Assembly (NCBI GenBank): GCA_024998815.1
Contig: JACEUQ010000003.1
Span: 259,900 to 323,899 of the forward strand
Length of the DNA: 64,000 bases
DNA from: Opitutus sp.
GTDB lineage: Bacteria; Verrucomicrobiota; Verrucomicrobiia; Opitutales; Opitutaceae
Direction: 5' to 3'
Shown here: in pieces, positions 3,808 to 23,961 of the stretch
Layout: every line of letters begins with the position of its first letter
How positions within the stretch are numbered: the stretch's first letter is position 1
Notes under the pieces: generated by a model
The model's database searches: none
What the model saw: only the letters and a program-made list of their open reading frames with translations
What the model was told of the DNA's origin: nothing
Translations under genes and position numbers: made by a program

Positions 3808-3871
3808 TAGGCGCCGACGCTACCGGTTCTGCGCAGCGCGGCAATGGTGCCGCGAGAAAAACCTTCGTGCA

Positions 3872-4067
3872 GGGCGCATCCCAGTTTTTGAATAGTGAGC
3901 TGCTTTTCGCTGGAAAAAACGGGTCCTAGTGCCGTGTAGGTTCGTGCTCAGCGAAGCGGTGCGTGGCCCTGAGCGTGAGCTCAGGGTCTGGATGCGCAAA
4001 CACCGCGTAATCCCTGAGCTCACGCTCAGGGCCACAGGTATTGCTTTCCAGAAACTGAGATGCGCCC
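3872..4067. mobile_element. 196-bp MITE containing a REP-B inverted pair
   Basis: TIR GGGCGCATC(C/T)CAGTTT; 9-bp direct repeat CTTCGTGCA at 3863-3871 and 4068-4076; inverted sister copy at 15098-15385. Confidence 0.85.
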
Positions 4068-4119
4068 CTTCGTGCATCTCCACCGTTGCCAAAAAACCAT
4101 CGTCTCCGGCCCTCCCTCC

Positions 4120-4156
4120 AAGCCAAAGTGTCACCTAATAGGTGACACTTTAGGTT
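4120..4156. repeat. Second copy of the AAAGTGTCACCTAATAGGTGACACTTT palindrome, just downstream of the PhoD-like gene
   Basis: 27-bp core identical to 1802-1828. Confidence 0.9.
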
Positions 4157-4161
4157 CTGCC

Positions 4162-5532
4162 TCACGGCAGGGTGAACTCGAGCTGGATCGGGATCGCGCC
4201 CTGCGCGTCGCGTTCGGAGATGAGCACCTGGTGGCCGAGGCCGTCGGCGCCTTGGCGGCCGCTCCACTTTACCCGGATCTGGCGGCCGTCGTCTTCAATG
4301 TCCACCAGCCCGAATTGATTGAGCGTGTCGGTGGGCAGGCTTTGGTAACGGGCGCCGTGGCTGTAGGGGCCGCCTTTGTAGCTTCCGCGGTTGGCAATGG
4401 GGCCCGCTTGAAACACACGAATCGGCGCGCCTCCGCCTGTGGCGAAATCGCTGTTCGATCCGTCGTCGATCGCCGTCAGGTGAGCGTCACCCGACAAAAT
4501 CACCACCCGCCCGGTCAGGCCGTTCGCCTTGATAAAATCCGCGATTTCGGTGCGGTGCGCCGGGTAGCCTTGCCAACGATCGTCTTTGCTCGGTGCGCCA
4601 TTCCAGGGCACCGAGGACACCCAAAAAATCAGCGGACAATGCGCGTCACGTGCGGCGAGCAGTTCGGCGCGCAGCCAGGCGTCTTGCGCCGCACTCATCA
4701 TCCGCCGGCCGGCCGGATCACGTTCACTGCGCAGGTCGGAGAGGATAAAACGCACACGGCCCACCGTGAAGGCTTGGTCCACCGGAGCGCGGGGGGTTTC
4801 CGCCGCCACGGTCAGCGGGTAATGCGGCACCAGTTCGCGGTAATTACGCAGTGAGGCCTCGCGGCTGGGACTGGTGCGGTTGCTGTCGTTGGGGCCATAA
4901 TCGTGGTCGTCCCACTGGTAAACGAGCGGCGTGTTCGCCAGTAGCGTGCGCAAGCGCGGAGCGGCAAGGTGGGCATCGTAGGCCGCCCGAAAAACTTCGA
5001 CGCGGTTTTCGGCGATGTCGGCGTAATGAAAATCGCCGGTGTGCAGAAAAAAACGCGCGCCTTGCGCGGCGGCGGCGGTAAAAACCGGTGAGTTTTTCAC
5101 GCGCGCGCAGGAGCCCACTGCGAAGGAAAAACTGGCGGGCTTCCACGGCGCGGGAAAGGTGCGGAAGGAGCGCGCCTCGTCGTCGAGCGGAGTGCCGGTG
5201 GCCGCAATGAAACGGTAACAGTAGGTCGTATCGGGCCGGAGTCCACCGAGGTTAAAACGGTGCAGCGTGCCGGCGTCCATGGGTGCGGTCAGCACGGGAG
5301 CGATGAGTGATGGCGGAGCGGCGAGCAGTTCCAGTCGGGCGGACGTGGCGGTGTTGAGGCGGGCGGTGACGACCGCTTGCGCCTCGGTCAGTCCCCCCAC
5401 CCAAGCCCAGCCGACGGGGCTGGCAGATGTGGGGGCAGCGGGAGCCGGTGCGAGTTCGGCAGCGCGAGTCGGCGGAAAGCTGAAAGTTAGACTGAGCGCG
5501 AGGGCGAGGAACCGAAGGAAGAGGAAGCGCAT
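4162..5532 (-). CDS. Alkaline phosphatase D (PhoD-like) family protein, secreted
   Basis: Signal peptide; FAVGSC, LHTGDFHYAD, QWDDHDYGPND, LSGDAH motifs. Confidence 0.88.
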   Translation of the reverse strand: MRFLFLRFLALALSLTFSFPPTRAAELAPAPAAPTSASPVGWAWVGGLTEAQAVVTARLNTATSARLELLAAPPSLIAPVLTAPMDAGTLHRFNLGGLRPDTTYCYRFIAATGTPLDDEARSFRTFPAPWKPASFSFAVGSCARVKNSPVFTAAAAQGARFFLHTGDFHYADIAENRVEVFRAAYDAHLAAPRLRTLLANTPLVYQWDDHDYGPNDSNRTSPSREASLRNYRELVPHYPLTVAAETPRAPVDQAFTVGRVRFILSDLRSERDPAGRRMMSAAQDAWLRAELLAARDAHCPLIFWVSSVPWNGAPSKDDRWQGYPAHRTEIADFIKANGLTGRVVILSGDAHLTAIDDGSNSDFATGGGAPIRVFQAGPIANRGSYKGGPYSHGARYQSLPTDTLNQFGLVDIEDDGRQIRVKWSGRQGADGLGHQVLISERDAQGAIPIQLEFTLP

Positions 5533-5579
5533 GAGGTAGGATTAGAATCGGAGTGAACGACGCCACATTCGGTGAGAGG

Positions 5580-6707
5580 CTAGGGACTGCGACGGGGTGA
5601 AGGCGCGGGATCGGGCTTCCACGCGTAGCCTTTAGCCTCGGCGTCGGCCCAGAGCAGCGGCCAGTTGCGGCGGAACTGTTCGGGGCCGTTGACCTGCCAC
5701 TGGCTCCAACCGAAACCCAGGCGCTCGCAGGTTTGAAGGACGAATTCGTCGCTGCCGAAACTCACAGAACGCTCACTATCACCGGCCTTCAGCCCGAGTT
5801 TCTCCGCCGTGTACCCGGCGGGAAAGTTGTTCTCTGAGGGCCAGCCGGGGAAATCGCGGTGCAAGGCGCGAAGGTTTTCCGCCTTGGGAAACAGGTTCGG
5901 ATCGGCGTGGTAAAGGTGGTAGGCCACGGAGGTCTTGGACCAGTCAATGGGGCCGGCGAGCTTTTGAAAAAAACGCGTGAGGTTGCCCATGGCCGTGAGT
6001 GTTCCCCAGCCGGAAACGCCAGCGGGCGAGAGAATCATCAGGTGAGTTGCTGGCGCGAGCGTGCGAGCGGTGGCGTGGACGCGAACCAGTGCTTCGAGGG
6101 TGCCCGTAGCGGCAGGGTCGAGGGCACCGTCGTGGCCGGGTCCGGCGAGGGGCTCGTTGGCGAGTTCGTAGATGACGTGGGTGCGGTTGGCGAAAAACGG
6201 GGCGACGGCGCGCCACAGTCCGTTGTTGAGCTTTTCGTCGTATTTCGGTGCCGGTCCCGGGACGCGGTTGTGGGCGTTGACGATGGCGTAGAGGCCGTTT
6301 TTCGAACAGAGGTTCACGGCGTGCTCGATGCGCTTCAGCATGGCCTGGCGGTACTCGGGGTTGTCCCAATCGTACTTCCGATAACCCTCTTCGTGGATCC
6401 ACACGTCGAAGAGGATCAGGCGCACGGCGTTGAGCCCGGCTTTGCGCAGGTCCGCGTAGTAGGAGTCGGGCGGTTCCGTGGGCGGCTCCGACCAGAGCCA
6501 AGCGGTGCCGGCGCGCAGCGGCGTGTTTGCATCGGTGCGCAGAACCTTGAGTCGGGTGTTCGGCTGATCGACATCCGCGATCTCGACGACGCGGATACGG
6601 GCGCGGTCGGTGCGAAGCGGAGGGGAAAGCGTTTGGGCGGCGGCAAACGATGCGGTGCAGACGAGCGCGAAGGAGACAAGGGTGATGAGGGTAAGGAGTG
6701 GCCTCAT
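5580..6707 (-). CDS. Glycoside hydrolase family 5-like secreted protein
   Basis: Signal peptide; GLNAVRL, YAIVNAH, VIYELANEP (acid/base), AYHLY, PSENN (nucleophile region). Confidence 0.75.
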   Translation of the reverse strand: MRPLLTLITLVSFALVCTASFAAAQTLSPPLRTDRARIRVVEIADVDQPNTRLKVLRTDANTPLRAGTAWLWSEPPTEPPDSYYADLRKAGLNAVRLILFDVWIHEEGYRKYDWDNPEYRQAMLKRIEHAVNLCSKNGLYAIVNAHNRVPGPAPKYDEKLNNGLWRAVAPFFANRTHVIYELANEPLAGPGHDGALDPAATGTLEALVRVHATARTLAPATHLMILSPAGVSGWGTLTAMGNLTRFFQKLAGPIDWSKTSVAYHLYHADPNLFPKAENLRALHRDFPGWPSENNFPAGYTAEKLGLKAGDSERSVSFGSDEFVLQTCERLGFGWSQWQVNGPEQFRRNWPLLWADAEAKGYAWKPDPAPSPRRSP

Positions 6708-6807
6708 GGGGTTGAGGGTGGTTGAGCGGGTTCGTCGTAAGGATGATGCCTGCCTTGCAGGGGAAAAAAATCCGCAAACATGGCCAGATCCCCGTGGGAT
6801 CGGCCGA

Positions 6808-7956
6808 CTAATGAGAGCCGCGCGATCCGTCTTTCGTCGCCGCTAGAGCATTACGGAGCGCCCACACTTGGCCAATGGGAACGTCTTTCACGTAGACCTC
6901 GATCGCCCAGTCGGTGCCCTCGATCTTGCGCGAGAAAATCAAGGTCGCCCACTTGGGCAGGGTATCGACGGTATCCCACTTGTAACGATCCCACCACTCG
7001 ATCTCGTGCAGTAGCGAAGTCTGCACTCGCACGCAGGCAAACATCCACCCCATCCCATACAGGGGCTTCGATTGTCCTGCGGACATGATGACGGCCCGAT
7101 TATCACCACTGCCGGTCCACGAAGAATAAAACAACGGCTCGCCTACCTCGTGGTAGATTTTCTCATCAGGCGACTTATAGCCGTGCAAGGCATGCCCCGG
7201 CGCCACTGCCTGCGATTCGATCACACAAGTAACCGACAGAAACTCACGTTTGATCGACTGCAACAGAGCCGACGTCACGCTCATTTTCCTCCCCGCCATC
7301 TTGCCGTGCCAGGTGCGAAACCAGTCGGCCACCAATCGACGGTGCTCCGCGGTTCTCACCAACGACCAACTGGTCAACGGACCGTCGTAGATGCGCGTCA
7401 GCTGCGTCAGCGCCCGAAAACAATCCCTATTAGTGGAACTGTCCGGAGGATTCTCCAGACCTTCGATCAACTCCGGAAATATGGCGGGGTCCTGAATGCG
7501 TTTTTGTTCAACCAGGTAGGCGATGAGGCTCGCCGCCTCCATTCCCTGGCCGTGCCTCACGCGCAACGGATGATACAGAGGCAGTGCGTTCCAAAAAGGC
7601 GTCCACTCATGCGGTTCCTTGAATGCCCGCCACGACTGGTCGCCATGCACCGCCAATTCCCGGGTGATCGGAATCCACTTGGCCAACTCGGGCAACAAGC
7701 GCCGCAACTCCGCATCGCCAAACTCCGCGTAAGACGGAGGGTTCAGGTCACCAAACAGTCGGCAATCGCCTGTCTCCCAGCCACGCAACACCCGCTCAAA
7801 GTTCGGCTCCGAAGCTGCGCCTGAGATGCTCCCGACTAACAAGAGCATCCACCAAAAGCGGGCGATTCCGAACGGGACCGGCCGTGTTTTCGTGTTTTTA
7901 AAGGGGGCGACGAACTTGAGTCCACTGAGCATCGCTAGGGCCGGTCCGGAATTCAT
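6808..7956 (-). CDS. Hypothetical protein, possible signal peptide
   Basis: 382-aa ORF filling the gap between the GH5 gene and ruvB; hydrophobic FWWMLLLVGSISGA segment; no motif recognised. Confidence 0.6.
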   Translation of the reverse strand: MNSGPALAMLSGLKFVAPFKNTKTRPVPFGIARFWWMLLLVGSISGAASEPNFERVLRGWETGDCRLFGDLNPPSYAEFGDAELRRLLPELAKWIPITRELAVHGDQSWRAFKEPHEWTPFWNALPLYHPLRVRHGQGMEAASLIAYLVEQKRIQDPAIFPELIEGLENPPDSSTNRDCFRALTQLTRIYDGPLTSWSLVRTAEHRRLVADWFRTWHGKMAGRKMSVTSALLQSIKREFLSVTCVIESQAVAPGHALHGYKSPDEKIYHEVGEPLFYSSWTGSGDNRAVIMSAGQSKPLYGMGWMFACVRVQTSLLHEIEWWDRYKWDTVDTLPKWATLIFSRKIEGTDWAIEVYVKDVPIGQVWALRNALAATKDGSRGSH

Positions 7957-8064
7957 GGTGGCTATGAGGTTGGAACGGTAACGGATGTAGCTGAGCCGAA
8001 AGAATGGAAGCCTGAAGGCGTTGCGGACGAAAGAGGACGAGCAAGAAAACGATTGGGCGGGGGG

Positions 8065-9126
8065 CTACAGCAGCGTGCCCTGGTCGCCACCGTTGCCGAC
8101 CGCGGTCTTGAGGCCGATGGCGAGGTAGCCTTTGGCGGTCAACATGCGGCCCTGGGGCGTGCGTTGCAGGTAGCCTTCTTGGATGAGGAACGGTTCATGA
8201 ACTTCCTCGAGCGTTTCGGCTTCTTCGCCCACCGCCACCGCGATGGTGCCCAGGCCGACCGGGCCGCCTTTGTAGTTTTCAGCCATGATGCGCAGCACGC
8301 GTTTGTCCATTTCGTCGAGGCCAGCAGCGTCGATCTCTAGGAGCTCAAGGGCGGCGGCGGCGGTGTCGCGTGTGATGTTGCCGGTGGCCCGCTCCTGCGC
8401 GTAGTCGCGACAGAAGTTGATCAAATTATTCGCAATGCGGGGCGTGCCGCGGGAGCGCGTCGCGATCTCCTTGGCGCCGCCTTGGTCGATCGCGACGTTG
8501 AGCAGTCCGCAACTGCGGGTAACGATCCCCATGAGCGTGGTCACATCATAGTACTCAAGGCGCGTCTGGAGGGTGAAACGCGAGCGCAGCGGGGCGGTGA
8601 GCAGGCCGGCGCGGGTGGTCGCGCCGATCAGGGTGAAACGCGGAATCGAGAGGCGCACGCTGCGGGCGTTGGGTCCTTGGTCGATCATGATGTCGATGCG
8701 GAAGTCCTCCATCGCGCTGTAGAGGTATTCCTCGACCGTTTTGGGGATGCGGTGGATCTCGTCGATGAACAACAAATCGCCTTCTTCTAGGCTGGTGAGC
8801 AGGCCTGCAAGGTCGCCGGCTTTTTCGACCACGGGGCCCGAGGTCACGCGGACGTTGCGGCCCATCTCGTGGCCGAGGATGAACGAGAGCGTGGTCTTGC
8901 CCAGGCCGGGCGGGCCGGAAAGCAGGATGTGATTGAGCGGGTCACCGCGGCGTTTTGCGGCGCCGACCATGACCTGCAGGCGCTCGACGGTTTTGGGCTG
9001 ACCGGTGAAGTCGGAAAAGGAGAGCGGGCGCAGCGCGGCCTCAGCGGAGGTGACGGGCGCGGCGAGCGTCGAGGCGAGGTAACCGAGGCCTTTGTCTTTG
9101 GAATTATCGGGAGCAGCGGGAGGCAT
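8065..9126 (-). CDS. ruvB: Holliday junction branch migration helicase RuvB
   Basis: LRPLSFSDFTGQ, GPPGLGKTT, FIDEIHR, GATTRAGLLTAPLRSRF, RSRGTPRIAN, RTPQGR; start placed at ATG 9126. Confidence 0.97.
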   Translation of the reverse strand: MPPAAPDNSKDKGLGYLASTLAAPVTSAEAALRPLSFSDFTGQPKTVERLQVMVGAAKRRGDPLNHILLSGPPGLGKTTLSFILGHEMGRNVRVTSGPVVEKAGDLAGLLTSLEEGDLLFIDEIHRIPKTVEEYLYSAMEDFRIDIMIDQGPNARSVRLSIPRFTLIGATTRAGLLTAPLRSRFTLQTRLEYYDVTTLMGIVTRSCGLLNVAIDQGGAKEIATRSRGTPRIANNLINFCRDYAQERATGNITRDTAAAALELLEIDAAGLDEMDKRVLRIMAENYKGGPVGLGTIAVAVGEEAETLEEVHEPFLIQEGYLQRTPQGRMLTAKGYLAIGLKTAVGNGGDQGTLL

Positions 9127-9159
9127 TGTGAGGCAAATGAGGGGTGGCGGCGGGCGCCG

Positions 9160-9192
9160 AATGACCAATGACCAATGACCAATGACCAATGA
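9160..9192. repeat. Heptamer tandem array (AATGACC)4.7 between murA and ruvB
   Basis: Perfect tandem units; degenerate complementary units at about 9279-9299. Confidence 0.9.
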
Positions 9193-9299
9193 AAACGCGG
9201 GCGGCGGCAGCTAGGTGGTGGCGTGGCATGACAGGCGGGGTGGGGTGGTATTCAGTGTTGCTCAGGGCGAAACCCGTTGGGTATTGGGCATTCGTCATT

Positions 9300-9320
9300 C
9301 CCGCGCGCGAAGCGCGCGGG
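9300..9320 (-). terminator. GC-rich hairpin abutting the murA stop codon
   Basis: CCCGCGCGC-GAA-GCGCGCGGG; no clear U-tract. Confidence 0.45.
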
Positions 9321-10610
9321 CTACTTCCACTCCACTTCGGCGCCGAGGGTGCGCAGGTTTTCCACGAAGCGCGGGTGGGCGCGTTTGATGATCTCAGCGT
9401 GACGCACCACCGACTCGCCGGGGATGGCCGCCGCCACCATGTAGAGCGCCACCGCCGCACGGATGATGTAGGGCGATTCCACTGTGGCCGGGCGCAGCGG
9501 GCGGTTGCCAAAAACCACGAGACGGTGCGGGTCGCTCACCAGCGCGTGCGCGCCGAACTTGGCCAACTCGGGGATCCACGAAAAACCGTTTTCGTAGACC
9601 TTGTTCCAGAAATGAATCGTGCCGTCGCAGCGCGTGCTCAGGGCGATCATCAGCGGGAGCAAATCGACCGAGAAATACGGCCACGGGGCGGCCTCGATTT
9701 TCGGCAGCAAATTGGTGGTGAAGGGCGTCTCGATGACCAACTTCTGGCCGCGGCGCACCACCACGGTGTCGCCCTCGTGTTCGATGACCACGCCGAGTTT
9801 TTTAAAGGCGCGGCTAATCAGGTCAAAGTGGTGCGGCAGGGCCTTGGTCACGCGAACCTCGCCGCCGGTGATGGCGCCGAGGGCGAGGAAGGTAACGATC
9901 TCGTGGTAGTCGCTGTTGATCGTGATGTCGGCGCCGTGGAGTTTTTCCACGCCGGAGATCTTGAGCATGGAGGTGCCCAGGCCCTCGATCTTCGCACCCA
10001 TGGCAACAAGCGCCGCGCACAGGTCCTGCACGTGGGGCTCGCTGGCGGCGTTGATCAGCGTGGATTCGCCGTCGGCGAGGGCGGCGGCCATGGCGAAGTT
10101 TTCGGTCACCGTGACCGACATGTAATCGCACCAGTGGCGCGCGCCCTTAAAACCCTTGGGCAAGGCGATGACGAGCGGGTCGCCCTCGTTCACGATGGCG
10201 CCCAGCACCGAGAGGATTTCGAGGTGCGGGTCGATTTCGCGCACGCCCAGCGAGCAGCCCTTGGTGTTGGCCTGAATGGCGATCTGGCGCAGGCGGTTGA
10301 GCAGCGCAGGATACAGCAAGACGGTCGAACGCATGTCCTGGGGCAGCTCATCGTTTTCGAGGGTGCTTCTGAAGGTGGCGTGGCAGACGCGCATCTCGGC
10401 CAGGTCGCGATCCCAGGTGATTTGCGAACCCTGCGACTGGAAAAACGCGACGAGTTTATTGAGGTCGGTGATGTCGGGGACGTTGCGCAACGTCACGGGC
10501 TCGTCGGTGAGCAAGGTAGCGCAAAAGATGGGCAGCACCGAGTTCTTGTTACCCGAAGGGGTGATGGTGCCGGTGAGGGGCTTGCCGCCGTGAACGATGA
10601 GATCGGACAT
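9321..10610 (-). CDS. murA: UDP-N-acetylglucosamine 1-carboxyvinyltransferase
   Basis: SGNKNSVLPI, DMRSTVLL, KGCSLGVREIDPH (catalytic Cys loop), SVTVTEN, AASEPHV, IKRAHPRFVENLRTLGA. Confidence 0.93.
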   Translation of the reverse strand: MSDLIVHGGKPLTGTITPSGNKNSVLPIFCATLLTDEPVTLRNVPDITDLNKLVAFFQSQGSQITWDRDLAEMRVCHATFRSTLENDELPQDMRSTVLLYPALLNRLRQIAIQANTKGCSLGVREIDPHLEILSVLGAIVNEGDPLVIALPKGFKGARHWCDYMSVTVTENFAMAAALADGESTLINAASEPHVQDLCAALVAMGAKIEGLGTSMLKISGVEKLHGADITINSDYHEIVTFLALGAITGGEVRVTKALPHHFDLISRAFKKLGVVIEHEGDTVVVRRGQKLVIETPFTTNLLPKIEAAPWPYFSVDLLPLMIALSTRCDGTIHFWNKVYENGFSWIPELAKFGAHALVSDPHRLVVFGNRPLRPATVESPYIIRAAVALYMVAAAIPGESVVRHAEIIKRAHPRFVENLRTLGAEVEWK

Positions 10611-10706
10611 CTGAGTGAGTTTAAAGGTGAGGGGAAAAGTAGAGAGGGAATGCCGGCGGCGGGGTCAGCCGCAGACCGACGCGGTGAGCCCAAGAAAACG
10701 GGACAC

Positions 10707-10739
10707 AAAAAAGGCGTCCGTGGTAAAACGGACGCCTTT
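10707..10739 (-). terminator. Rho-independent terminator of the 10784-12088 gene
   Basis: 12-bp stem AAAGGCGTCCGT/ACGGACGCCTTT, with a T6 run at the stem's 3' end on the minus strand. Confidence 0.8.
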
Positions 10740-10783
10740 AACATGCGCGGGGGCGGTGAGCCCTTGGCAAGGTTTAACTCGGT

Positions 10784-12088
10784 TTAAGCTGCGGGCGGGA
10801 TGCCTGAGCCGCCGCCATCGTGGCGATGGCCGCCGCCGCCCGGAGCACTCGGGCCGCCGGGGCCAGCTTGACCGCCGCCGGAACGACCCCGGCCGCGACC
10901 GCCGCGACGACGACCGCCGCCTTGGCCCTGCGGACGGTGTTCGCCGCCACCATGGCCATGGGCAGGTTGACCCTGGCCGTGGCCCTGCTGGGTCGGATTG
11001 GCGCCTTGCGGGCCGCTGGGGCCGCCTTGGGGAGCGCCGCCGCCGGAGCGACCGCGACCACCGCGACGACGACGACGACGGTTGCCATCGGGGCCGCCTT
11101 CACCGGGTTGGCCCTGCTGCGAAGGCTGGGCGCCGGGGAGGGACGGCTTGCCGGGCTCGGGCGCGGTGCCGAACAGGCCTTTAACCCAGCCGAACAGGCC
11201 GCTGGGCTTCTTGCCGGAAACAGGCTGCGATGGGCCACCGGCGAGCGGGGCTGAGCCCGAAGCCGGAGCGCCGGGGGCGATCGGACCACGCTCATCGCGC
11301 GGCTGGCGCGGGCCACCGTCACGCGGCTGCGAACGGTTGCCCTGACCTTGACCACCACCGCGTTGACCGCCGCGGCCTTGACCGCCACGGCCCTGGCCAC
11401 CGCGACCTTGACCGCCGCGACCCTGGCGATTTCCAGGGTTGTGGAAATCTTCGCGAGGCAACGGCTTGCCGCTGGCATCGGGCGCACGCTCGAGCATGGG
11501 CACTTCGCTGCGACGCACCGGACGGAACACCGGGCGTTCCGCCTCAAGCGGAGACTCGGCGCGCTGCACGGCGGGCTTGGGAGCCGAACCGGTGGAGGCC
11601 GCAGCGGCTTTACCCTCGTAAGGGAAAGCGGGCTTGGACTCCCAGCTTTGGGCGGGACGCTTCACTTCGGCGGGAGGGAGGATATTGAGCTCAGCCTTGA
11701 CGGCGGGAGCGGGAGGAATAACAGCGGTGGCCGGGGCCTCCGCGGGTTTGCTAACAACCACTGGCGCAACAGGAATCGCGGCGGCCGGAGCCGGGGCGAC
11801 GACAGGAGCAGCACTGACAGGAGCCACGTCAGCCGAAGCGAACGGGTTCTGGTATTCCGCCTCCGCCTTAAGCACTTGCACGGCGGAGGGTTGGTAGGTG
11901 CCGGAGGCGGCAGGGTTGCTGGCGGAGGCCGGAGCGGCCTGGGGCGTGACGCGTTTACCGCGCGCGAGACCCGAGCCGCGGTTGGCGCCGGCATCGGCAC
12001 CCCAATCGGCTACGGGCGCAGCGGGTGCGCCAGCGTTCTCGGCAGGAGCCCCGGAGGGCGTGGTGCCGGACGTGGTATTATCTGACAT
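10784..12088 (-). CDS. Low-complexity Pro/Ala/Gly/Arg-rich protein with (GQGRG)n and poly-Arg tracts
   Basis: 434-aa ORF from ATG 12088, followed by a terminator; LFGWVKGLFG amphipathic segment. Confidence 0.7.
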   Translation of the reverse strand: MSDNTTSGTTPSGAPAENAGAPAAPVADWGADAGANRGSGLARGKRVTPQAAPASASNPAASGTYQPSAVQVLKAEAEYQNPFASADVAPVSAAPVVAPAPAAAIPVAPVVVSKPAEAPATAVIPPAPAVKAELNILPPAEVKRPAQSWESKPAFPYEGKAAAASTGSAPKPAVQRAESPLEAERPVFRPVRRSEVPMLERAPDASGKPLPREDFHNPGNRQGRGGQGRGGQGRGGQGRGGQRGGGQGQGNRSQPRDGGPRQPRDERGPIAPGAPASGSAPLAGGPSQPVSGKKPSGLFGWVKGLFGTAPEPGKPSLPGAQPSQQGQPGEGGPDGNRRRRRRGGRGRSGGGAPQGGPSGPQGANPTQQGHGQGQPAHGHGGGEHRPQGQGGGRRRGGRGRGRSGGGQAGPGGPSAPGGGGHRHDGGGSGIPPAA

Positions 12089-12341
12089 GTCTTTGTTTAT
12101 CTGTGGGTTAAACTCGCGCTCACCGCGTAGGGCGGGAGCTGCAAGGGACGTGTTATCGCGGGGCGCGTGAGCGCTCAACGCAGGTAACAACCCATTGACC
12201 GTCACCCAACCGTTGCCTTGGCGCAACAGCTAATTTCCCTCCCAAGACCGCCTGCCGCGCCCTCGCGTTTGCCGGAGTAGAATCGCGCTGCGGCGCACTT
12301 GCCCCTTGATCCTCGCCCCCGCTCCCGCCAAACCTCCGCCC

Positions 12342-12713
12342 ATGGACAAGCTCGAAGAAATTTTCCGCATGCAAGAGGCCCTCAACGCGCGCATCGGCGT
12401 CACCCTGCCGCCGGCCACCGAGGAGGAGAAAACCAAGTGGATCCTCAACTACACCCGCGCCATGCAGCAGGAAACCGCCGAGTTGATCGACAGCGTTCCC
12501 TGGAAATGGTGGGCCAAGTACCAGAAATTCGACGAGCAAAACGCCAAGGTCGAGGTCGTCGACCTGTTCCACTTCCTCGTTTCGCTGGCCCAAACCCTCG
12601 GCATGACCTCCGAGGACGTTTACCAAGCCTACCTGAAGAAAAACGCGGTTAACCACCAGCGCCAGGAATCCGGCTACGTCAAAAAGGACGAGGCCGACTC
12701 CAAGCACATCTAA
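12342..12713 (+). CDS. Dimeric (all-alpha) dUTPase family protein
   Basis: QETAELIDSVPWKWW, KVEVVDLFHFLVS, YLKKNAVNHQRQESGY. Confidence 0.85.
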   Translation: MDKLEEIFRMQEALNARIGVTLPPATEEEKTKWILNYTRAMQQETAELIDSVPWKWWAKYQKFDEQNAKVEVVDLFHFLVSLAQTLGMTSEDVYQAYLKKNAVNHQRQESGYVKKDEADSKHI

Positions 12714-12762
12714 CGCGCCCGGGCCGGCGGCTCGACTCACGCGCAAGCTGCGGCGCGTCCAA

Positions 12763-12890
12763 ACCTTGAGCTCACGCTCAGGGCCACGCCCGGCCCAAGA
12801 AATCCTCCCACCACCTTGAGCTCACGCTCAGGGCCACACCCGGCCCAAGAAATCCTCCCACCACCCTGAGCTCACGCTCAGGGCCACGCC
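12763..12890. repeat. Tandem array of a 50-bp unit (about 2.5 copies) containing REP-B
   Basis: CC(T/C)TGAGCTCACGCTCAGGGCCAC at 12764, 12814, 12864 with near-identical linkers; a REP-B variant follows at 12940-12963. Confidence 0.9.
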
Positions 12891-13010
12891 CTGCAACCCT
12901 CGCCGTGGACTCGAACGCCCCCGTTGACCGGCACTCCCCGTGGCCTTGCGCGTGAGCGCAGGGTGTTTTTCTCCACCGGGATTCGCCCCTCCCCTCCGCC
13001 TCTCCGCGCC

Positions 13011-13490
13011 ATGATCGCCGCCGGCCAGAAACCCCCAACCGATTTCACCCTTTCCGTTGTGCGCGACGGCGTGGCCAGCGAGGTCGTTTTCCGCGACCTG
13101 CTGACCGGGCCGACCATCGTGTCGGTCTACATGAAGAACAACACGCCCTCCTGCGACCGCCAGACCGAGTCGCTCGGCGCGCACGCCGCTGAGTTCGCCT
13201 CCCTTGGCTATCAACTGATCGCGCTCAGCCGCGACACCTGCGGCTCGCATCTAAAGTACGCCGCCAAAAAGGGCCTCGGCTACATCCTGGCGAGCGACCC
13301 CACCGACGGCTTTGCCCGGGCGACCGACTCCATCGTGGAAAAGTCCATGTATGGCAAAACCTACCAGAGCCCGGCCCGCGCCGCGTATGTGTTCGCCGCC
13401 GACGGCACCGTACTGGCCGTGATCACCAAGGTGGACACCAAAGATCACGCCGCCCAACTCCGGGCCGTGCTCGCCGGGCTCGGGCGCTAG
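13011..13490 (+). CDS. Peroxiredoxin (Bcp/AhpC-TSA family)
   Basis: YMKNNTPSC (peroxidatic Cys), ALSRDTCGSH, ILASD, EKSMYGK, RAAYV. Confidence 0.85.
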   Translation: MIAAGQKPPTDFTLSVVRDGVASEVVFRDLLTGPTIVSVYMKNNTPSCDRQTESLGAHAAEFASLGYQLIALSRDTCGSHLKYAAKKGLGYILASDPTDGFARATDSIVEKSMYGKTYQSPARAAYVFAADGTVLAVITKVDTKDHAAQLRAVLAGLGR

Positions 13491-13534
13491 CCGGCAACGC
13501 CGGCGCTGCAAAATTAACGGAATACTTCGATCCG

Positions 13535-13614
13535 TTTAGCCGCGAAAGATCGCAGAGAACGCATAGAAATACAGGGTTTGTTCTTTGCGCTCCTTGCGTT
13601 CTTTCGCGGCTAAA
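13535..13614. repeat. Repeat family C (GAACGCA-like units) inverted pair
   Basis: TTTAGCCGCGAAAG...CTTTCGCGGCTAAA; near-identical copy at 23835-23915. Confidence 0.85.
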
Positions 13615-13765
13615 TTGCCGTGGCTTGATCCAGCATTTTGAATGTTACAGCCTGCGAGATAGGGAAAATGTAACTATGCGGGTTACACCGCCTAAAGGGA
13701 TTGCGGTCAAAGCGCGGCGAGGTGCAACTCAGTGCCACCCCACCGCCCCACCCCACTTCGCCCCC

Positions 13766-15094
13766 ATGAAAGTGCTTCCCCTCCTCCTTGCCGTTTCGCT
13801 GGTCGCCAACGCCGCCCTGCTCACGGTTAACTGGCGCTCGTCGCCCGGCGATGCCCCGCCCGATGGGCAAATCACCCCCGCGCGCCCTTTCGGTGCCGCC
13901 CCCTCCGCTGCGTCAGGCGCCAACGGCGAAGCGCGGCTTTCCCCTGCTGCAGCCGCCATTTTCGCAGACGACAACCCCGAGGCCCTCCGCGACCTGCTGC
14001 GCGCCTCGGGATTGCCCGACGACTTGGTGCGCGCCATCGTTCAAATGCGTGTCTGGAAAAAGTACGAGGCGCGCTTCAAAGCCCTCAATCCCCAGCCCTC
14101 CGATTTCGAGGCCAAGCAGTCCTGGTGGAAGGACGACCCCAGCCAAGTTAACGGCTGGAATGGCAACCGATCCAAGGCCCAGCGCGACGAGGCGCGCCGC
14201 TTGCAACGCGAGGTCAAAGAGGAGTCCGAACGCCTGCTGGGCGTGGACCCCACGCAAAACCGCTGGCAGTCGCAGCAGTTCGCCTTTCTCGCCCCCGAAA
14301 AGCGCCAAGCCCTCCTCGATATCCAGCAGGACTACCAGGAGTTGATCAACGAGGTGCAGCAGGACACCCAGGGCTTCCGCCTCGCCTCCGACGGGGAAAA
14401 ACTTCGCTACCTGCAGGCCGAGCAAAAGCGCGACATGGAGGCGCTGATGTCGCCAGCCGAGCGCCAGGCTTACGAGCTGCGCCAGTCGTCCACCGCGCAA
14501 CAGTTGCGCGTCAAAATGACCGCGTTAAACGCCACCGAACAGGAATACCTTAAGATCTTCCCGCTGCAAAAAGCCTTCGACGAACTGTACAACCCGCAGA
14601 ACAGCGACCCGTTTGGCGGCGGTGCGGAGCGCGACCAGGCTTACTGGAAGGCGCGCCAGGCTGCGGAAGCTCAACTGCAGGCGCAGATCAAGGCGGTCGT
14701 CGGCGAGGCCCGCTACGCCGAGTCGATTCGCAAACAGGACAACGACTGGCGGCAGCTCGAGGCCGCCACCCGCCGCCTGACTCTGCCCGCCGACACGCCC
14801 GCGCGCCTTTACCCGTTGCGCGACAGCACCGCCTCGGCCGCCCAGCAGATTGCGACCAACGCCGACCTGCCCGCAGCGCAGAAAAAACAAGCGCTGGCCG
14901 AACTGGCCGCCGCCACCCGCGCGCAGGTACGTGCCAGCCTCGGGTCCGAAGGGTCCGAGGCCTATTTCAAAAACAACGGTATGCGTTGGCTCAAGGAACT
15001 CGAGAAGGGCAACACCATCACATTTAACGCGAACGACTCTGGGTGGAGCACCAAATCCCTTCCCAAAGAACCCCAAAAAGCCGCCAGCCCCTAA
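13766..15094 (+). CDS. Hypothetical secreted or membrane-anchored alpha-helical protein
   Basis: MKVLPLLLAVSLVANAALL N-terminus; 442 aa, rich in Q/E/A. Confidence 0.7.
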   Translation: MKVLPLLLAVSLVANAALLTVNWRSSPGDAPPDGQITPARPFGAAPSAASGANGEARLSPAAAAIFADDNPEALRDLLRASGLPDDLVRAIVQMRVWKKYEARFKALNPQPSDFEAKQSWWKDDPSQVNGWNGNRSKAQRDEARRLQREVKEESERLLGVDPTQNRWQSQQFAFLAPEKRQALLDIQQDYQELINEVQQDTQGFRLASDGEKLRYLQAEQKRDMEALMSPAERQAYELRQSSTAQQLRVKMTALNATEQEYLKIFPLQKAFDELYNPQNSDPFGGGAERDQAYWKARQAAEAQLQAQIKAVVGEARYAESIRKQDNDWRQLEAATRRLTLPADTPARLYPLRDSTASAAQQIATNADLPAAQKKQALAELAAATRAQVRASLGSEGSEAYFKNNGMRWLKELEKGNTITFNANDSGWSTKSLPKEPQKAASP

Positions 15095-15097
15095 CCC

Positions 15098-15385
15098 GGG
15101 CGCATCCCAGTTTCTGAAAAGGGGGACCTGTGGCCCTGAGCGTGAGCTCAGGGATTACGCGGTATTTGCGCATCCAGACCCTGAGCTCACGCTCAGGGCC
15201 ACGCACCTGAATGCCCCTCCTCGTAGCCTTGCGCGTGAGCGCAGGGTGTTTTGCCCCACCCGTATCCCTGAGCTTCCCTGAGCTCACGCTCAGGGCCACG
15301 CACCGTTTCGCTGAGCACGAACCTACACTAGGACCCGTTTTTTCCAGCGAAAAGCAGCTCACTATTCAAAAACTGGGATGCGCCC
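15098..15385. mobile_element. 288-bp MITE (inverted sister of 3872-4067) carrying extra REP-B units
   Basis: 16-bp perfect TIR GGGCGCATCCCAGTTT; 8-bp direct repeat CCTAACCC at 15090-15097 and 15386-15393. Confidence 0.85.
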
Positions 15386-15492
15386 CCTAACCCTCCCTTC
15401 GCCCCCCCCAAAGACACCCCCACAAGATCAGAAAAACTAATAGTATTGCCGCGCCAAACGCGAATAAATTATGGGTCGTGCTTCACCCGAGC

Positions 15493-16737
15493 ATGAAAAC
15501 CCATCTCATTGCCTGCCTCCTGATCCCGAGTCTGCTGCCCTGCGCTTATGCCGCAGTACCCGCTGTGGCTAAAGCGCCCTCGCCCGTCGAGGTCGCCTTC
15601 ACCGGCTCGCTCGGATACGACAACAACGTGTACCTGGTCGACCAAGGCACACTTGGCCGCGTCGACTCGGTCGTCTCCACCGTGGGTGCCAAGATGGGGA
15701 CCCAGTTTGGCTGCGGAGCGTCCGCCAGCTACGCCGCCACCGGCGCCCGATTCTGGAACGCCAGCGACGAGGACAACGTGAAGCACCAGCTCGCCGCGGG
15801 TTATAAGCACAGCTTCGATGCGCTCAGCGTGACTGCCGCCACCGAATTCGCCCAGATCCAAGGCGAGGATCAGGGCAGCGTTTACGGGACTATGCCCGGC
15901 AAAAGCAGTTTCACCACCGTCGCCCCGCGTGAACGCCGCGACCAGTTGCAGAACAAAACCGACCTGGCCGTGCGCTACGACCTCGGCCAAAACTTCGTGC
16001 GCGGCGTGGGCAAACTCCAGTACTGGGACATGCAAACCCACGTCTTGAGCGGGGCCGAAAACTACCGCGACCGCTACGACCTCAACGGTGGCGCCGACTT
16101 CGGCCGGGCATTCGCGAAGGGCGGCCCCGATTACTACCTCGGTTACCGCCGCGGCTATTGTTACCAAGACACGGACGCCGCCCCGGCCACAGTCAACCAC
16201 GCTACCAACCCGTACACCCGGTTCCTCGCTGGTGTGGACGGCAAAGTCACCCCCAACCTCAAACTGGCCGCCCAGCTCGGGTGGACCGTCCATGAGTATA
16301 CCTCCTCCTATCTCGGCGCCGACAAGAGCATCGAGGGGCTTTACCAGGACGTCACCGCCACCTGGAAGGCCGCCGCCAACGACGAGCTCCAGCTCAAGAC
16401 CAGCATGGGCCGCGTAGTCTCCTCCACGGGCTGCGCGAGTGTACTCGCCTCCGCCTACCAGCTCGGATGGAAACACGACTTCAGCAAACAGTGGACCGCC
16501 ACGCTGACCGGCCGCCTGTGCAAGAATAACTACGATGGCAGCTCTACCGATCGCAACGACGTGCTTTACACCGCCATCGCCGGCCTCACTTGGAACTCCA
16601 GTGCCACGCTCGCCTGGACGCTCTCAGTGACCCAGGAATTCGCCAAAAACATCCGCACCAACGTGACTGAAACCTTCAGCGACCAGGCCGCCTTTGAGCG
16701 CACCTTCGTTTCCGCCGCAATCACCTGGAAGCTGTAA
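15493..16737 (+). CDS. Outer-membrane beta-barrel protein
   Basis: Signal peptide; alternating aromatic/hydrophobic strands throughout; C-terminal AITWKL. Confidence 0.7.
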   Translation: MKTHLIACLLIPSLLPCAYAAVPAVAKAPSPVEVAFTGSLGYDNNVYLVDQGTLGRVDSVVSTVGAKMGTQFGCGASASYAATGARFWNASDEDNVKHQLAAGYKHSFDALSVTAATEFAQIQGEDQGSVYGTMPGKSSFTTVAPRERRDQLQNKTDLAVRYDLGQNFVRGVGKLQYWDMQTHVLSGAENYRDRYDLNGGADFGRAFAKGGPDYYLGYRRGYCYQDTDAAPATVNHATNPYTRFLAGVDGKVTPNLKLAAQLGWTVHEYTSSYLGADKSIEGLYQDVTATWKAAANDELQLKTSMGRVVSSTGCASVLASAYQLGWKHDFSKQWTATLTGRLCKNNYDGSSTDRNDVLYTAIAGLTWNSSATLAWTLSVTQEFAKNIRTNVTETFSDQAAFERTFVSAAITWKL

Positions 16738-17718: not shown

Positions 17719-17763
17719 GGGCGCAGGGTTCGGAAGAAACAGGGGAAACCGGAATGAGCAGAA

Positions 17764-17846
17764 GAACGAGAACGAGTAAGAGTAGGAGTAGGAGCGCCGG
17801 GCGGATTAAATCGTTCTCGTCCTCGTTCTCTTACTCCTACTCGTTC
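17764..17846. repeat. Inverted pair of hexamer arrays (GAGAAC/GAGTAG units)
   Basis: GAACGAGAACGAGTAAGAGTAGGAGTAGGAG ... TCGTTCTCGTCCTCGTTCTCTTACTCCTACTCGTTC. Confidence 0.75.
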
Positions 17847-17943
17847 GCCTGCTGGTTCGCTCTTACACGACGCTCATACTAAGGCGGGTTCAAGATGCGT
17901 TTAACTAACCAGGCTTCTGGCGCGCGGACACTTTCGGTCAACA

Positions 17944-18013
17944 CCCTGAGCTCACGCTCAAGGCCACGAGGACTGTGTTAGCGAAGCGTGTGGCCTTGAG
18001 CGTGAGCTCAAGG
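17944..18013. repeat. REP-B inverted pair
   Basis: CCCTGAGCTCACGCTCAAGGCCAC / GTGGCCTTGAGCGTGAGCTCAAGG; spacer resembles that at 22480-22501. Confidence 0.9.
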
Positions 18014-19698: not shown

Positions 19699-19755
19699 GT
19701 AGCGCAGACTTCCAGTCTGCTTCGAGCGGGCAGGCAGACTGGAAGTCTGCGCTAC
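19699..19755. repeat. REP family A inverted pair between convergent genes
   Basis: GTAGCGCAGACTTCCAGTCTGC ... GCAGACTGGAAGTCTGCGCTAC. Confidence 0.9.
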
Positions 19756-20279: not shown

Positions 20280-20554
20280 GACGAGGAGGAAAAGAGGGGG
20301 ATGGAGAAACGAGTGCGGGCCGCAACCCATGAAGCGGGGATTCCCCTGTATTCGGCGCAAACCCCTTCCGGCTTAAGCCCAAATCAGCAAATGCTCTAGA
20401 TTGGGTGGTTTTTAAGGTGTTTTCCGGCCCCTGAGCGGCCCGAAGCGCTAGACCGGAAGGGGACATGCGGCTCGCCCCACCCACCCTGAGCTCACGCTCA
20501 GGGCCTGGAGTTTGGCCCCAAAAGCAGGTGGATGCGAAGCGGCCGGAGGCCCGG

Positions 20555-21997
20555 TTACGCAGCGCGGAAGAGTGCTTCAGCCAAGAAGGGTGGCGCTTTT
20601 GATGAGTTCGTGGAGGGAGGGTCGGTCGACGTGAAGTCGGAGAAACTCTCTGGGGCGATCTGGTCGGCCCAGCATTCGCTGCGCAGGGTGCGCAAGAGGT
20701 CCCCCGTGGAACTGGTCGCAGGCGAGGCGCCCGAAGAGTGCGTGCGCCATTTGGGCGGGCGAAGATGCGGCGGCGGATCAGGGGTTTGCCCCGCAGGATC
20801 GCCGAAGAGCAGGGCGGCGATTAACAACAGCGCATAGGCGGCGACGGTGGCGGCGGGTTGGTTGCGGTTGGAGGCGGCGGTGCGCAGTTGTGCCTGGCCG
20901 GTGCCGATCAGGGTTTTCTCATCCCGGAAGTTTCCCTCGATGCCCCAACGCCAGAGGTAATACTGGAGTTGGTCACCCACGGGCATATCCGGGTCGGTGC
21001 AAACCAAGAAGGCAGGCTGGCGATAGAGCAGCTTCGAGCCTGCGCGCAATCGGTAGCCCACCGGGGCGATCACCATGACTTGCAACGGGAGCGTCGCCCC
21101 GGCTTTACGCCACAGCACCGGCCCGAGGGTCTTGATTTTAAAGGTGTGCTTTTTTCCGGCCGCATAAGCCTCGACGCTTTGCCAGGCCACGGTGTCGTCG
21201 GTGCGCAGCTCTTCCGGGGTCTGGACCGGCGCGCCATAGACCGGCGGGCGACCGGTGGCCGCGGGTGGTCCAGGCAGGGCGTTGAGCACGGCGTCCCGGC
21301 GGATCCGGCCGATATAAACGGTCTTGGCGGGCAGGCCCTTGAGTACGACCGCATTGGTGTAACTGTCATCGCCGGCGACCACCAGTTTGCGCGTGTCTGG
21401 CAGCGCCTGGCGAAGCTGCTGGATGCGGGCGAGCGCGACGACATTAAGCCGCTGCTGTTTTTTCTTCTCCGTGTACTGCTGAACCTCGTCGGTAGTGGCT
21501 TTTTTACCCGGCTTTGGCGGCGTCGGCGCGTGGGTGAAATCCACCGGAATCATCCGGGCGTGTCCGTCGGAACCAGGCCAGGCCGCAGAGAGTTGCACAT
21601 AGCGCTGGCCGCGCACCAGGTTGGTTTGGAACGCGGGGCCGAGCGGATCGCGTTTCCAGCCGACGCCGTCGATCTTGACCCCGGTTTTGCGTACCAGGGT
21701 GTCATCGATGGCGGCCACCAACGGGGTAAGCGCCGGCAGGTTTACCTCAAGCTCATGGAGGACCGTGCGGAAAAGCCCCGCCGGCTTCACCCGGTCACGC
21801 GAATACAACCGGTAGTCGGCCGTCCAGTCCTGCTGGGCACGCCCGCACAGACAAATCAGGTTGGTAAGAGTCCCCCGGCACGGTGAAACCAGTGCCGCCA
21901 TGAGATGCCCCTGCAGTCTCCGGGCGCACTCGGGGGCGGCGCAAGCCGCAGCACAAGCCCGTTTCATAAGTCGTCCCAGCCGATCGGATAAACCCAA
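20555..21997 (-). CDS. DDE transposase (IS701-like/DDE_5-type); frame actually opens at the slippery site 22009
   Basis: AAIDDTLVRKTG, VVAGDDSY, YLWRWGIEGNFRDEK. Confidence 0.88.
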   Translation of the reverse strand: MGLSDRLGRLMKRACAAACAAPECARRLQGHLMAALVSPCRGTLTNLICLCGRAQQDWTADYRLYSRDRVKPAGLFRTVLHELEVNLPALTPLVAAIDDTLVRKTGVKIDGVGWKRDPLGPAFQTNLVRGQRYVQLSAAWPGSDGHARMIPVDFTHAPTPPKPGKKATTDEVQQYTEKKKQQRLNVVALARIQQLRQALPDTRKLVVAGDDSYTNAVVLKGLPAKTVYIGRIRRDAVLNALPGPPAATGRPPVYGAPVQTPEELRTDDTVAWQSVEAYAAGKKHTFKIKTLGPVLWRKAGATLPLQVMVIAPVGYRLRAGSKLLYRQPAFLVCTDPDMPVGDQLQYYLWRWGIEGNFRDEKTLIGTGQAQLRTAASNRNQPAATVAAYALLLIAALLFGDPAGQTPDPPPHLRPPKWRTHSSGASPATSSTGDLLRTLRSECWADQIAPESFSDFTSTDPPSTNSSKAPPFLAEALFRAA

Positions 21998-22325: not shown

Positions 22326-22593
22326 CCTTGAGCTCACGCTCAAGGCCACGTTCGGGCGGGTGCGGCCTGGAGTGTGCCTTTGCCTGGGTGGCTTTGGCTC
22401 GGTGTGGCTTCGTGCGTGAGCACGAGGTGTTTTTTCTGGCTGCGGTGCGCCGAATCCTTGAGCTCACGCTCAAGGCCACAAGGAGTGTGTTCGCGAAGAG
22501 TGTGGCCTTGAGCGTGAGCTCAAGGATTCGGCTGATCTGCGTTCGACTAGTCAGGGGCCAAACTCCAGACCCTGAGCTCACGCTCAGGGCCAC
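22326..22593. repeat. Cluster of four REP-B units plus a solo IS right end (22546-22568)
   Basis: REP-B at 22326, 22456, 22502, 22570; ACTAGTCAGGGGCCAAACTCCAG matches the IS right end with 1 mismatch. Confidence 0.9.
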
Positions 22594-23780: not shown

Positions 23781-23961
23781 AAAGTAGCGCAGACTTCCAG
23801 TCTGCTCCGGTGGCCAGGGCCGGACTTCAATCCATTTGGCCGCGAAGGATCGCAGAGAACGCATAGAAATACAGGTGGATTGTTCTTTGCGCTCCTTGCG
23901 TTCTTTCGCGGCAAAACTGCCTTGGGTGACTTCGGAGCAGACTTCCAGTCTGCGCTACTTT
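23781..23961. repeat. Composite: REP-A pair enclosing a family-C pair, between convergent rlmN and gltB
   Basis: REP-A arms 23781-23808 and 23934-23961; family C at 23835-23915. Confidence 0.88.

Follow-up and report, generated by a model that had tools for sequence, protein, structure and literature searches.

The stretch of Opitutus sp. DNA analysed here (64 kb of contig JACEUQ010000003.1, hereafter called the window) contains two copies, in opposite orientations, of a short element that has terminal inverted repeats (TIRs) and encloses a pair of repetitive extragenic palindromes (REPs). The first copy lies in the intergenic region between the genes of PhoD and MYG1, and the second at the end of the open reading frame (ORF) 13625-15094. 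[quoted passage not shown]

3872-4067: MITE copy 1, 196 bp, with a 9-bp duplication CTTCGTGCA
3863-3871, + strand: left target-site duplication of copy 1, CTTCGTGCA; the same 9-mer stands at 4068-4076
3872-3895, + strand: left TIR of copy 1, GGGCGCATCCCAGTTTTTGAATAG, resembling the left end of ISKra4-type IS
3896-3955, + strand: subfamily-specific non-coding body of copy 1, 100%/98% identical to copy 2
3956-3997, + strand: extended REP unit of copy 1, with its REP core at 3963-3986
3987-4011, + strand: spacer of 25 nt between the tail-to-tail REPs of copy 1, differing by a single base from that of copy 2
4012-4035, - strand: second REP core of copy 1, inverted, 100% complementary to 3963-3986
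4044-4067, - strand: right TIR of copy 1, GGGCGCATCTCAGTTTCTGGAAAG when read inwards, resembling the right end of the IS
4068-4076, + strand: right target-site duplication of copy 1
15098-15385, - strand: MITE copy 2, inverted relative to copy 1, 288 bp, with an 8-bp duplication CCTAACCC
15090-15097, + strand: left target-site duplication of copy 2, CCTAACCC, which holds the TAA stop codon (15092-15094) of ORF 13625-15094
15098-15121 and 15362-15385: TIRs of copy 2
15130-15202: REP pair of copy 2, homologous to that of copy 1 (REP 15130-15153, + strand; 25-nt spacer; REP 15179-15202, - strand)
15208-15304: extra segment of copy 2, 97 nt, with a variant REP GTAGCCTTGCGCGTGAGCGCAGGG at 15223-15246 (+ strand) and a further REP at 15276-15299 (- strand)
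15386-15393, + strand: right target-site duplication of copy 2

The two copies align from end to end with 95.8% identity across the 191 nt that they have in common. Relative to copy 1, copy 2 lacks 5 nt (GTGCC) and has an insert of 97 nt composed of further REP units, the gain of extra units having been noticed before; as repeated REP sequence lies on both sides of this insert, its exact placement can shift by 29 nt. The shared inverted ends are present at all four extremities, but they extend over about 24 nt and not over the 16 nt first recognised, and the match between the two ends of one element is 20/24 for copy 1 and 22/24 for copy 2. The 16-mer itself, GGGCGCATCCCAGTTT, matches three of these ends without mismatch (3872, +; 15098, +; 15370-15385, -) and the fourth with one mismatch (4052-4067, -); with up to three mismatches allowed, it has no other match in the whole window. 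The interior of each copy holds GTGGCCCTGAGCGTGAGCTCAGGG and its reverse complement, separated by the 25-nt spacer, which differs by one base between the copies. The internal REP pair with a near-identical spacer is therefore as described before, and its orientation can now be specified as tail-to-tail, with the GTGG heads pointing outward. The 196- and 288-bp elements have no coding capacity and no similarity to a transposase gene, and their interior consists of hairpins. No Rfam family matches anywhere in the window.

Each copy is bordered by its own direct repeat, of 9 bp for copy 1 and of 8 bp for copy 2, and the latter does include the stop codon of the upstream gene, as had been noticed from the sequence; reading it as a 9-bp duplication would require the loss of one terminal C from the element. 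The origin of these repeats is given by the empty sites, which were reached through the homologues of the flanking proteins in contigs of related freshwater Opitutaceae. In the case of copy 1, the PhoD-MYG1 intergenic region of contig L077, whose PhoD is 85% identical, reads ...GTGGAAA-TGCACGAAG-GTTTTTT... and is devoid of the element. The 9-mer TGCACGAAG is the reverse complement of the copy 1 duplication; it is single in L077 and stands on both sides of the element in the window. The element is likewise absent from contig L076. In the case of copy 2, the contigs L078, L079 and L080 (flanking protein 89% identical) contain one CCTAACCC and no element, and they read ...CCCTAACCC-TCGTTTC... (over a longer stretch, ...AGTCCCTAACCC TCGTTTC...); the flanks of L079 and L080 are 90-92% identical to those of the window. 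Each target is present only once in the empty sites; both copies are therefore genuine insertions, and it is the insertion that produced the flanking repeats. The comparison with relatives, which had been suggested as a check, is thus in favour of insertion at both places.

Contigs of four lake metagenomes aligned to copy 1 gave fragments only, with no informative empty-site joint. The same organism has also been assembled independently as a draft (GCA_024998745.1, contig JACEUP010000005.1), in which the spacing between PhoD and MYG1 is 354 bp, as in the window; the contig terminates about 285 bp beyond the upstream gene, within copy 2, a typical effect of repeats on assemblies from short reads. 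No sigma-70-like promoter or site adjoins either insertion, and the promoter-proximal targeting that is reported for some ISKra4 members is therefore not evident here.

The ends of the two copies belong to a family that is much larger than the window. A scan with the pattern GGGCGCATCNCAGTTTNTGRA, with one genome per species, yields 75 loci, nearly all of them in metagenome-assembled genomes of Verrucomicrobiota (Opitutaceae, Rariglobus, Prosthecobacter and others). These loci contain 39 inward-facing pairs of ends, most of which enclose elements of 67-371 bp, and the consensus end deduced from 76 ends is the 24-nt sequence GGGCGCATCTCAGTTTYTGGAYAG. Target duplications also occur at other elements with these ends: in 38 elements, the abutting 9-mers are perfect repeats in 11 cases and differ by one mismatch in 7 (18/38 at 0-1 mismatch), and the shifted controls at one mismatch or fewer give 0/1178.

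Ends of this type also enclose transposase genes. The unit L017:1244-2757, of 1514 bp, is located between such ends and its gene is frameshifted, while L047:1-1445 contains an intact ORF of 476 aa (6-1436). The L047 protein scores 227.8 bits, for a cutoff of 205, against the NCBIfam profile NF033572 (ISKra4 family transposase), and has a weak match with Pfam UPF0236. A protein search returns more than 3400 close homologues of this transposase, the majority of which sit on contigs about 1.5 kb long. In L084, L085 and L086, transposase homologues with 82-89% identity are enclosed by the same ends and form complete IS:

L084, 1396-2895: complete IS, 1500 bp, duplication CAACCGACG
L085, 1442-2943: complete IS, 1502 bp, duplication ATTCATGAA
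L086, 1445-2943: complete IS, 1499 bp, duplication TTGCCCAGC, with two extra bases

The TGA stop codon of the ISKra4-type transposase falls inside the right terminal repeat (AAAAACTGAGATGCGCCC), both at L047:1425-1445 and in the right ends of L084-L086; the C found at positions 3881, 15107 and 15376 of the window makes this codon TGG and would abolish the stop in an IS. ISL3 and IS256, which had been considered as possible sources of the ends, were dropped after the identification of the transposase.

ISKra4 has been placed among the prokaryotic Mutator-like DDE transposases (p-MULT 4) by Guerillot et al. (2014; PMC3942029), who give as features of this superfamily inverted repeats that have a terminal C and a length of 18-39 bp, and direct repeats measuring 8 or 9 bp. 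The elements studied here agree with both, their 24-nt repeats finishing in ...GCGCCC and their duplications measuring 8-9 bp. The attribution to a DDE enzyme, previously deduced from the combination of TIRs and 8-9 bp duplications, is strengthened by the fact that the same ends bound ISKra4 IS with 9-bp duplications. The window MITEs and the IS have only their terminal 20-22 nt in common, the left end resembling the left and the right end the right, and the interior of the MITE has no match with the interior of the IS. These terminal similarities suggest that the MITE copies would have been mobilised by an ISKra4-type transposase.

The passengers of the element belong to a REP family that is also present outside it. 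The 24-mer GTGGCCCTGAGCGTGAGCTCAGGG has 16 matches with up to three mismatches in the window, for 0 expected from shuffled sequences; five of them are in the MITEs and 11 are free. The predicted fold of the REP is a hairpin in which an 8-bp stem, closed by a GTGA loop, follows the unpaired 4-nt GTGG head, and that of the copy 1 REP has an energy of -9.5 kcal/mol (z -4.6). The 42-nt unit 3956-3997 is 88% complementary to the free REP 12753-12794. The free copies are distributed as follows, the dimers being compared with REPINs (REP doublets forming hairpins):

12764-12963: free REP cluster, outside the MITEs, with REPs at 12764, 12814 and 12864 (- strand) and a variant at 12940 (+ strand)
17944-18013: free head-to-head REP dimer with a 22-nt spacer, REPIN-like
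20484-20507, - strand: lone free REP, next to a gene for a DDE_5 transposase
22326-22593: free REPs at 22326 (- strand), 22456 (- strand), 22502 (+ strand) and 22570 (- strand), the second and third forming a head-to-head dimer (22456-22525, 22-nt spacer)

Between 12763 and 12912, a REP and a 26-nt spacer are arranged in tandem with a period of 50 nt; two copies are 98% identical and the third diverges, which suggests that the REP cluster grew locally through duplication. The gene beside the REP 20484-20507 (20555-21997, - strand) is a 480-aa ORF for a DDE_5 transposase (PF13546, E 1.5e-10) whose 3' end is about 50 nt from the REP, and this element may be an IS of the classical kind that landed in or next to a REP.

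Di Nocera et al. (2013, PMC3733652) reported a strong enrichment in GTAG-type REPs for Opitutus terrae, which belongs to the same family, and found that the head is mostly GTGG in one REP family of that species. A metagenome scan with the REP of the window gives 18 contigs, and MITE ends are found near the REP in none of them. On the other hand, REP copies are adjoined by ORFs that resemble REP-associated tyrosine transposases (RAYTs) at L097:242-835 (- strand, 197 aa), with a REP on both sides, and at L103:594-995 (- strand, 133 aa). Both ORFs contain the motifs PDHWH and YIFENP/YIFDNP, and their sole NCBIfam match is NF047646, REP-associated tyrosine transposase, over the full length of the profile (E 2e-12 and 1e-11, respectively). 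The best PDB match of the L097 ORF is the TnpArep of E. coli, 4ER8 (E 0.013), and the HUH and Tyr motifs correspond in this alignment. Searched by tblastn with an approximate E. coli RayT query, which is a weak test, the window and the first 75 loci gave no match. The similarities of the two ORFs make a good but not conclusive case for an HUH-type enzyme proper to this REP family in this lineage.

The core REP pair agrees in position, orientation and spacer across four assembled copies distributed over three sites, namely the two copies of the window and those of L018 and L037, two Rariglobus genome bins. The L018 copy, of 179 bp, occupies the third site and its left REP is truncated at the 5' side; the L037 copy is at the site orthologous to that of copy 2. 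The 60-nt body is also found in L018, in L037 and in lake metagenomes. In four further lake metagenomes, contigs pass from the left end through the subfamily body into the REP, with at least three other left flanks (X22 and X35 have one in common, X33 has two and X23 has one). A metagenome scan for the subfamily body with the pattern AATAGTGAGCTGCTTTTCGCTGG returned nothing. The presence of the same pair at the same place of the element in different sites implies that it was transported by the MITE and was not gained copy by copy.

The proposal that a DDE-mobilised MITE serves as a vehicle for REPs consequently stands for the pair found at the same place across sites, but in a passive sense only. 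Indeed, there is no sign that a MITE-borne REP seeded free REPs, and only a small part of the REPs is borne by MITEs: they account for 5/16 in the window, and the summed contig depth in the lake metagenomes is 2-7 for the body versus 30-68 for the REP. The 97-nt segment of copy 2, which is also present in L037, is a local gain after insertion and matches the free cluster at 12925-12982 with 83% identity along 58 nt. It was probably acquired through recombination or conversion involving a free REP cluster, or else through the insertion of a REP beside an existing REP.

The model we propose, to which we give a probability of about 85%, is that of a MITE with ISKra4-type ends which carries a tail-to-tail pair of host REPs as passengers. 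Judged by its sequence, the element fits the definition of a MITE and that of an ISKra4-type IS derivative, and its cargo corresponds to a REP family. The gene-less element possesses the 24-nt TIRs of a 1.5-kb IS of the ISKra4 family, whose transposase, a prokaryotic Mutator-like DDE enzyme acting in trans, would bind both ends and integrate the element by a staggered cut. The repair of this cut would generate the target duplication of 9 bp, sometimes of 8 bp. The interior does not derive from the IS and combines a unique stretch of 60 nt with the tail-to-tail pair of the lineage's own GTGG-headed REPs, members of a family that otherwise spreads alone and that would have a REP-associated tyrosine (HUH) transposase as its partner. 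This pair was in the element before its spread, and each transposition delivered two REPs to a new site as passengers.

Several observations weigh against this model. The window contains no ISKra4-type transposase gene, no full IS with these ends and no further end; the autonomous IS whose search the earlier note had proposed does exist, with its examples in other genomes (L084-L086, L047 and L017). Three of the four window ends have a C instead of a T at TIR position 10, which is never the case in the IS ends seen. No duplication surrounds the L018 copy. The event of REP capture is undocumented because no REP-less relative of the window MITE subfamily was found. The L037 copy has lost one end and raises a difficulty of its own: its element is 98% identical to copy 2 (254/259) and the adjoining flank is 88% identical (441/499). 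In the alignment of L037:2677-3449 with window 15127-15884, the identity falls about 30 nt past the duplication, and on the other side the contig leaves synteny at a REP. The simplest reading is that this contig is an assembly chimera through a repeat, and recombination or constraint are possible reasons for the mismatch of identities. Finally, the two RAYT-like ORFs score 47 and 45 bits against NF047646, under the curated cutoff of 80, and have no Pfam match; they are located on related metagenome contigs and not in this genome.

Could the MITE be a sink, which REPs entered separately in each landed copy, with a preference for existing hairpins or for non-coding DNA? The acquisition by copy 2 of 97 nt of REP units following its divergence from copy 1 would be an example of such an entry. 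GTAG/GTGG-headed perfect hairpins are moreover about 40 times denser within the same-TIR MITEs than in their flanks (36 in 6.0 kb of MITE interiors versus 4 in 28 kb of flanks, L001-L073). Separate entries are nevertheless difficult to reconcile with the coincidence of position, orientation and 25-nt spacer (1 base different) of the core pair in copies 1 and 2, the same arrangement being found in L018 and L037, or with the lake contigs that have other flanks and the body-REP junction at the same point. Furthermore, the free dimers of the window are head-to-head with 22-nt spacers, whereas the MITE pair is tail-to-tail, and we regard this explanation as improbable. The direction could also be the reverse, the hairpins being native to the MITE family and the free REPs being decayed MITE remnants spread by the DDE enzyme. 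GTGG/GTAG hairpins are indeed present in many unrelated subfamilies with the same ends, the MITE-type hairpins of the sampled JBKJRG loci are confined to MITE copies, and L037 offers an example of a copy minus one end. Yet no TIR remnant is found near the free REPs of the window or of L087-L104, and the free REPs make their own head-to-head dimers and flank a RAYT-like gene. The REP depth in the lake metagenomes is 10-30 times that of the MITE body, and the free REP family of JBKJRG is unlike its MITE-borne hairpins. A derivation of the free REPs from the MITE is, in our opinion, very improbable.

We attribute almost no probability to the idea that the tyrosine transposase moves the whole unit as a REP-derived element, a large REPIN or bacterial interspersed mosaic element (BIME), beside flanking repeats that are coincidental or pre-existing. 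It is true that REPs represent 37% of copy 1 and that the whole unit folds into one long hairpin; however, the empty sites with one copy of each repeat indicate that the repeats were made by insertion, the ends are those of ISKra4-type IS and the length of the duplication is that of the ISKra4 family. Single-strand transposition of the HUH type (IS200/IS605, RAYT) is not known to produce target duplications, which counts against this explanation too. The classification of the whole 196/288-bp element as a REPIN was ruled out by the IS-type ends and the insertion-made duplications. A MITE with ISKra4-type ends and a REP pair as cargo is consequently the reading that we retain.

The enrichment in GTAG/GTGG hairpins spans several unrelated MITE subfamilies, and the corresponding counts with control heads are 3-8. 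JBKJRG is the only other genome of which enough sequence was sampled; its free REPs form a family unlike the hairpins carried by its MITEs, and GTGG is there part of the stem. Likewise, no free copies of the MITE-borne hairpins are found in about 50 kb of CAYYSX. The capture of a host's own REPs is for these two reasons not established as a general rule, and the identity of the cargo with the free REP of the host is demonstrated for the window subfamily only. It is conceivable, though rather unlikely, that MITEs with ISKra4 ends are recurrent collectors and carriers of GTAG/GTGG REPs across Verrucomicrobiota, in other words a prokaryotic counterpart of the Pack-MULEs. If so, REPs would have another way of spreading that does not depend on the tyrosine transposase, inside genomes and possibly between them.

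The window contains other repeats. A second REP family, GTAGCGCAGACTTCCAGTCTGC, forms inverted pairs at 1045-1115, 19699-19755 and 23784-23958, and the L018 MITE copy is located within a REP pair of this family. At 13520-13630 and 23824-23921 there are two copies, 91% identical, of a palindromic element some 98 bp long, and the second of them is bracketed by GTAGCGCAGACTTCCAGTCTGC-family REPs at 23784 and 23937. The palindromes at 13520-13630 and 17740-17870 have no match in the interiors of the foreign MITEs. The hairpin AAAGTGTCACCTAATAGGTGACACTTT, which is found at 4118-4150 directly past the phoD stop, a second time at 1795-1835 and in many lake-metagenome contigs, may represent a terminator-like repeat family. 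Finally, a repeat with a 15-nt period at 11339-11425, within the long ORF 10784-12226 (- strand), is probably a pentapeptide-repeat coding stretch.

In conclusion, our observations bring together two mechanistically unrelated mobile systems, one nested in the other: the cut-and-integrate reaction of a Mutator-like DDE transposase and the single-strand reaction of the HUH/tyrosine type. This nesting means that the number and location of REPs in such genomes are not attributable to RAYT activity alone. The MITE family tied to ISKra4-type IS is apparently hitherto undescribed; the literature searched describes IS inserted into REPs, but neither a MITE with REPs inside it nor one that has been assigned to ISKra4, which is not proof of novelty. 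The ISKra4-type IS partners are very abundant in environmental metagenomes, and elements of this kind break short-read assemblies; any count of REP or REPIN populations should mask them or include them in its model. Biologically, the host is probably little affected.

The window elements share with the known bacterial MITEs (Nezha, Chunjie, Correia/NEMIS, RUP, ERIC) a small size, a non-coding interior, TIRs and a duplication of fixed length (PMC3733652, PMC3184786), as well as intergenic copies, empty sites in relatives and ends in common with an autonomous IS. They differ from them in their partner, which is of the ISKra4 (Mutator-like) type, and in their interior, which is foreign, host REPs included, and not that of an internally deleted IS. 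With the ISKra4 IS, which measure about 1.5 kb and possess one transposase gene, they have in common ends starting with GGG, the terminal C, the 24-nt repeats and the direct repeats of 8-9 bp; they are, on the other hand, without a transposase. Their passenger resembles the REPs and REPINs associated with RAYTs (Nunvar 2010; Bertels & Rainey 2011; Di Nocera 2013) by its 4-nt head, its short G+C-rich stem, its high copy number, its dimers and clusters, and the RAYT-like gene flanked by REPs in related contigs. The whole element, in contrast, has TIRs and target duplications, which are absent from REPINs, and its tail-to-tail pair with a 25-nt spacer is unlike the head-to-head dimers with a 22-nt spacer that are free in the window.

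A physical association of IS with REPs is also known from the IS that target REPs, such as IS1397, IS621, IS1594 and ISPpu9/10 (Tobes & Pareja 2006, cited in PMC3184786), but the nesting is opposite: the IS is inside the REP or BIME in their case, and the REPs are inside the transposable unit in ours. The Pack-MULEs of eukaryotes, mentioned in PMC3942029, are likewise non-autonomous members of the Mutator superfamily with captured host DNA inside, in which the transposase recognises the ends only and a 9-bp duplication is produced. The window element is prokaryotic and carries a non-coding repeat where Pack-MULEs carry gene fragments; the likeness would be one of mechanism and not of family.

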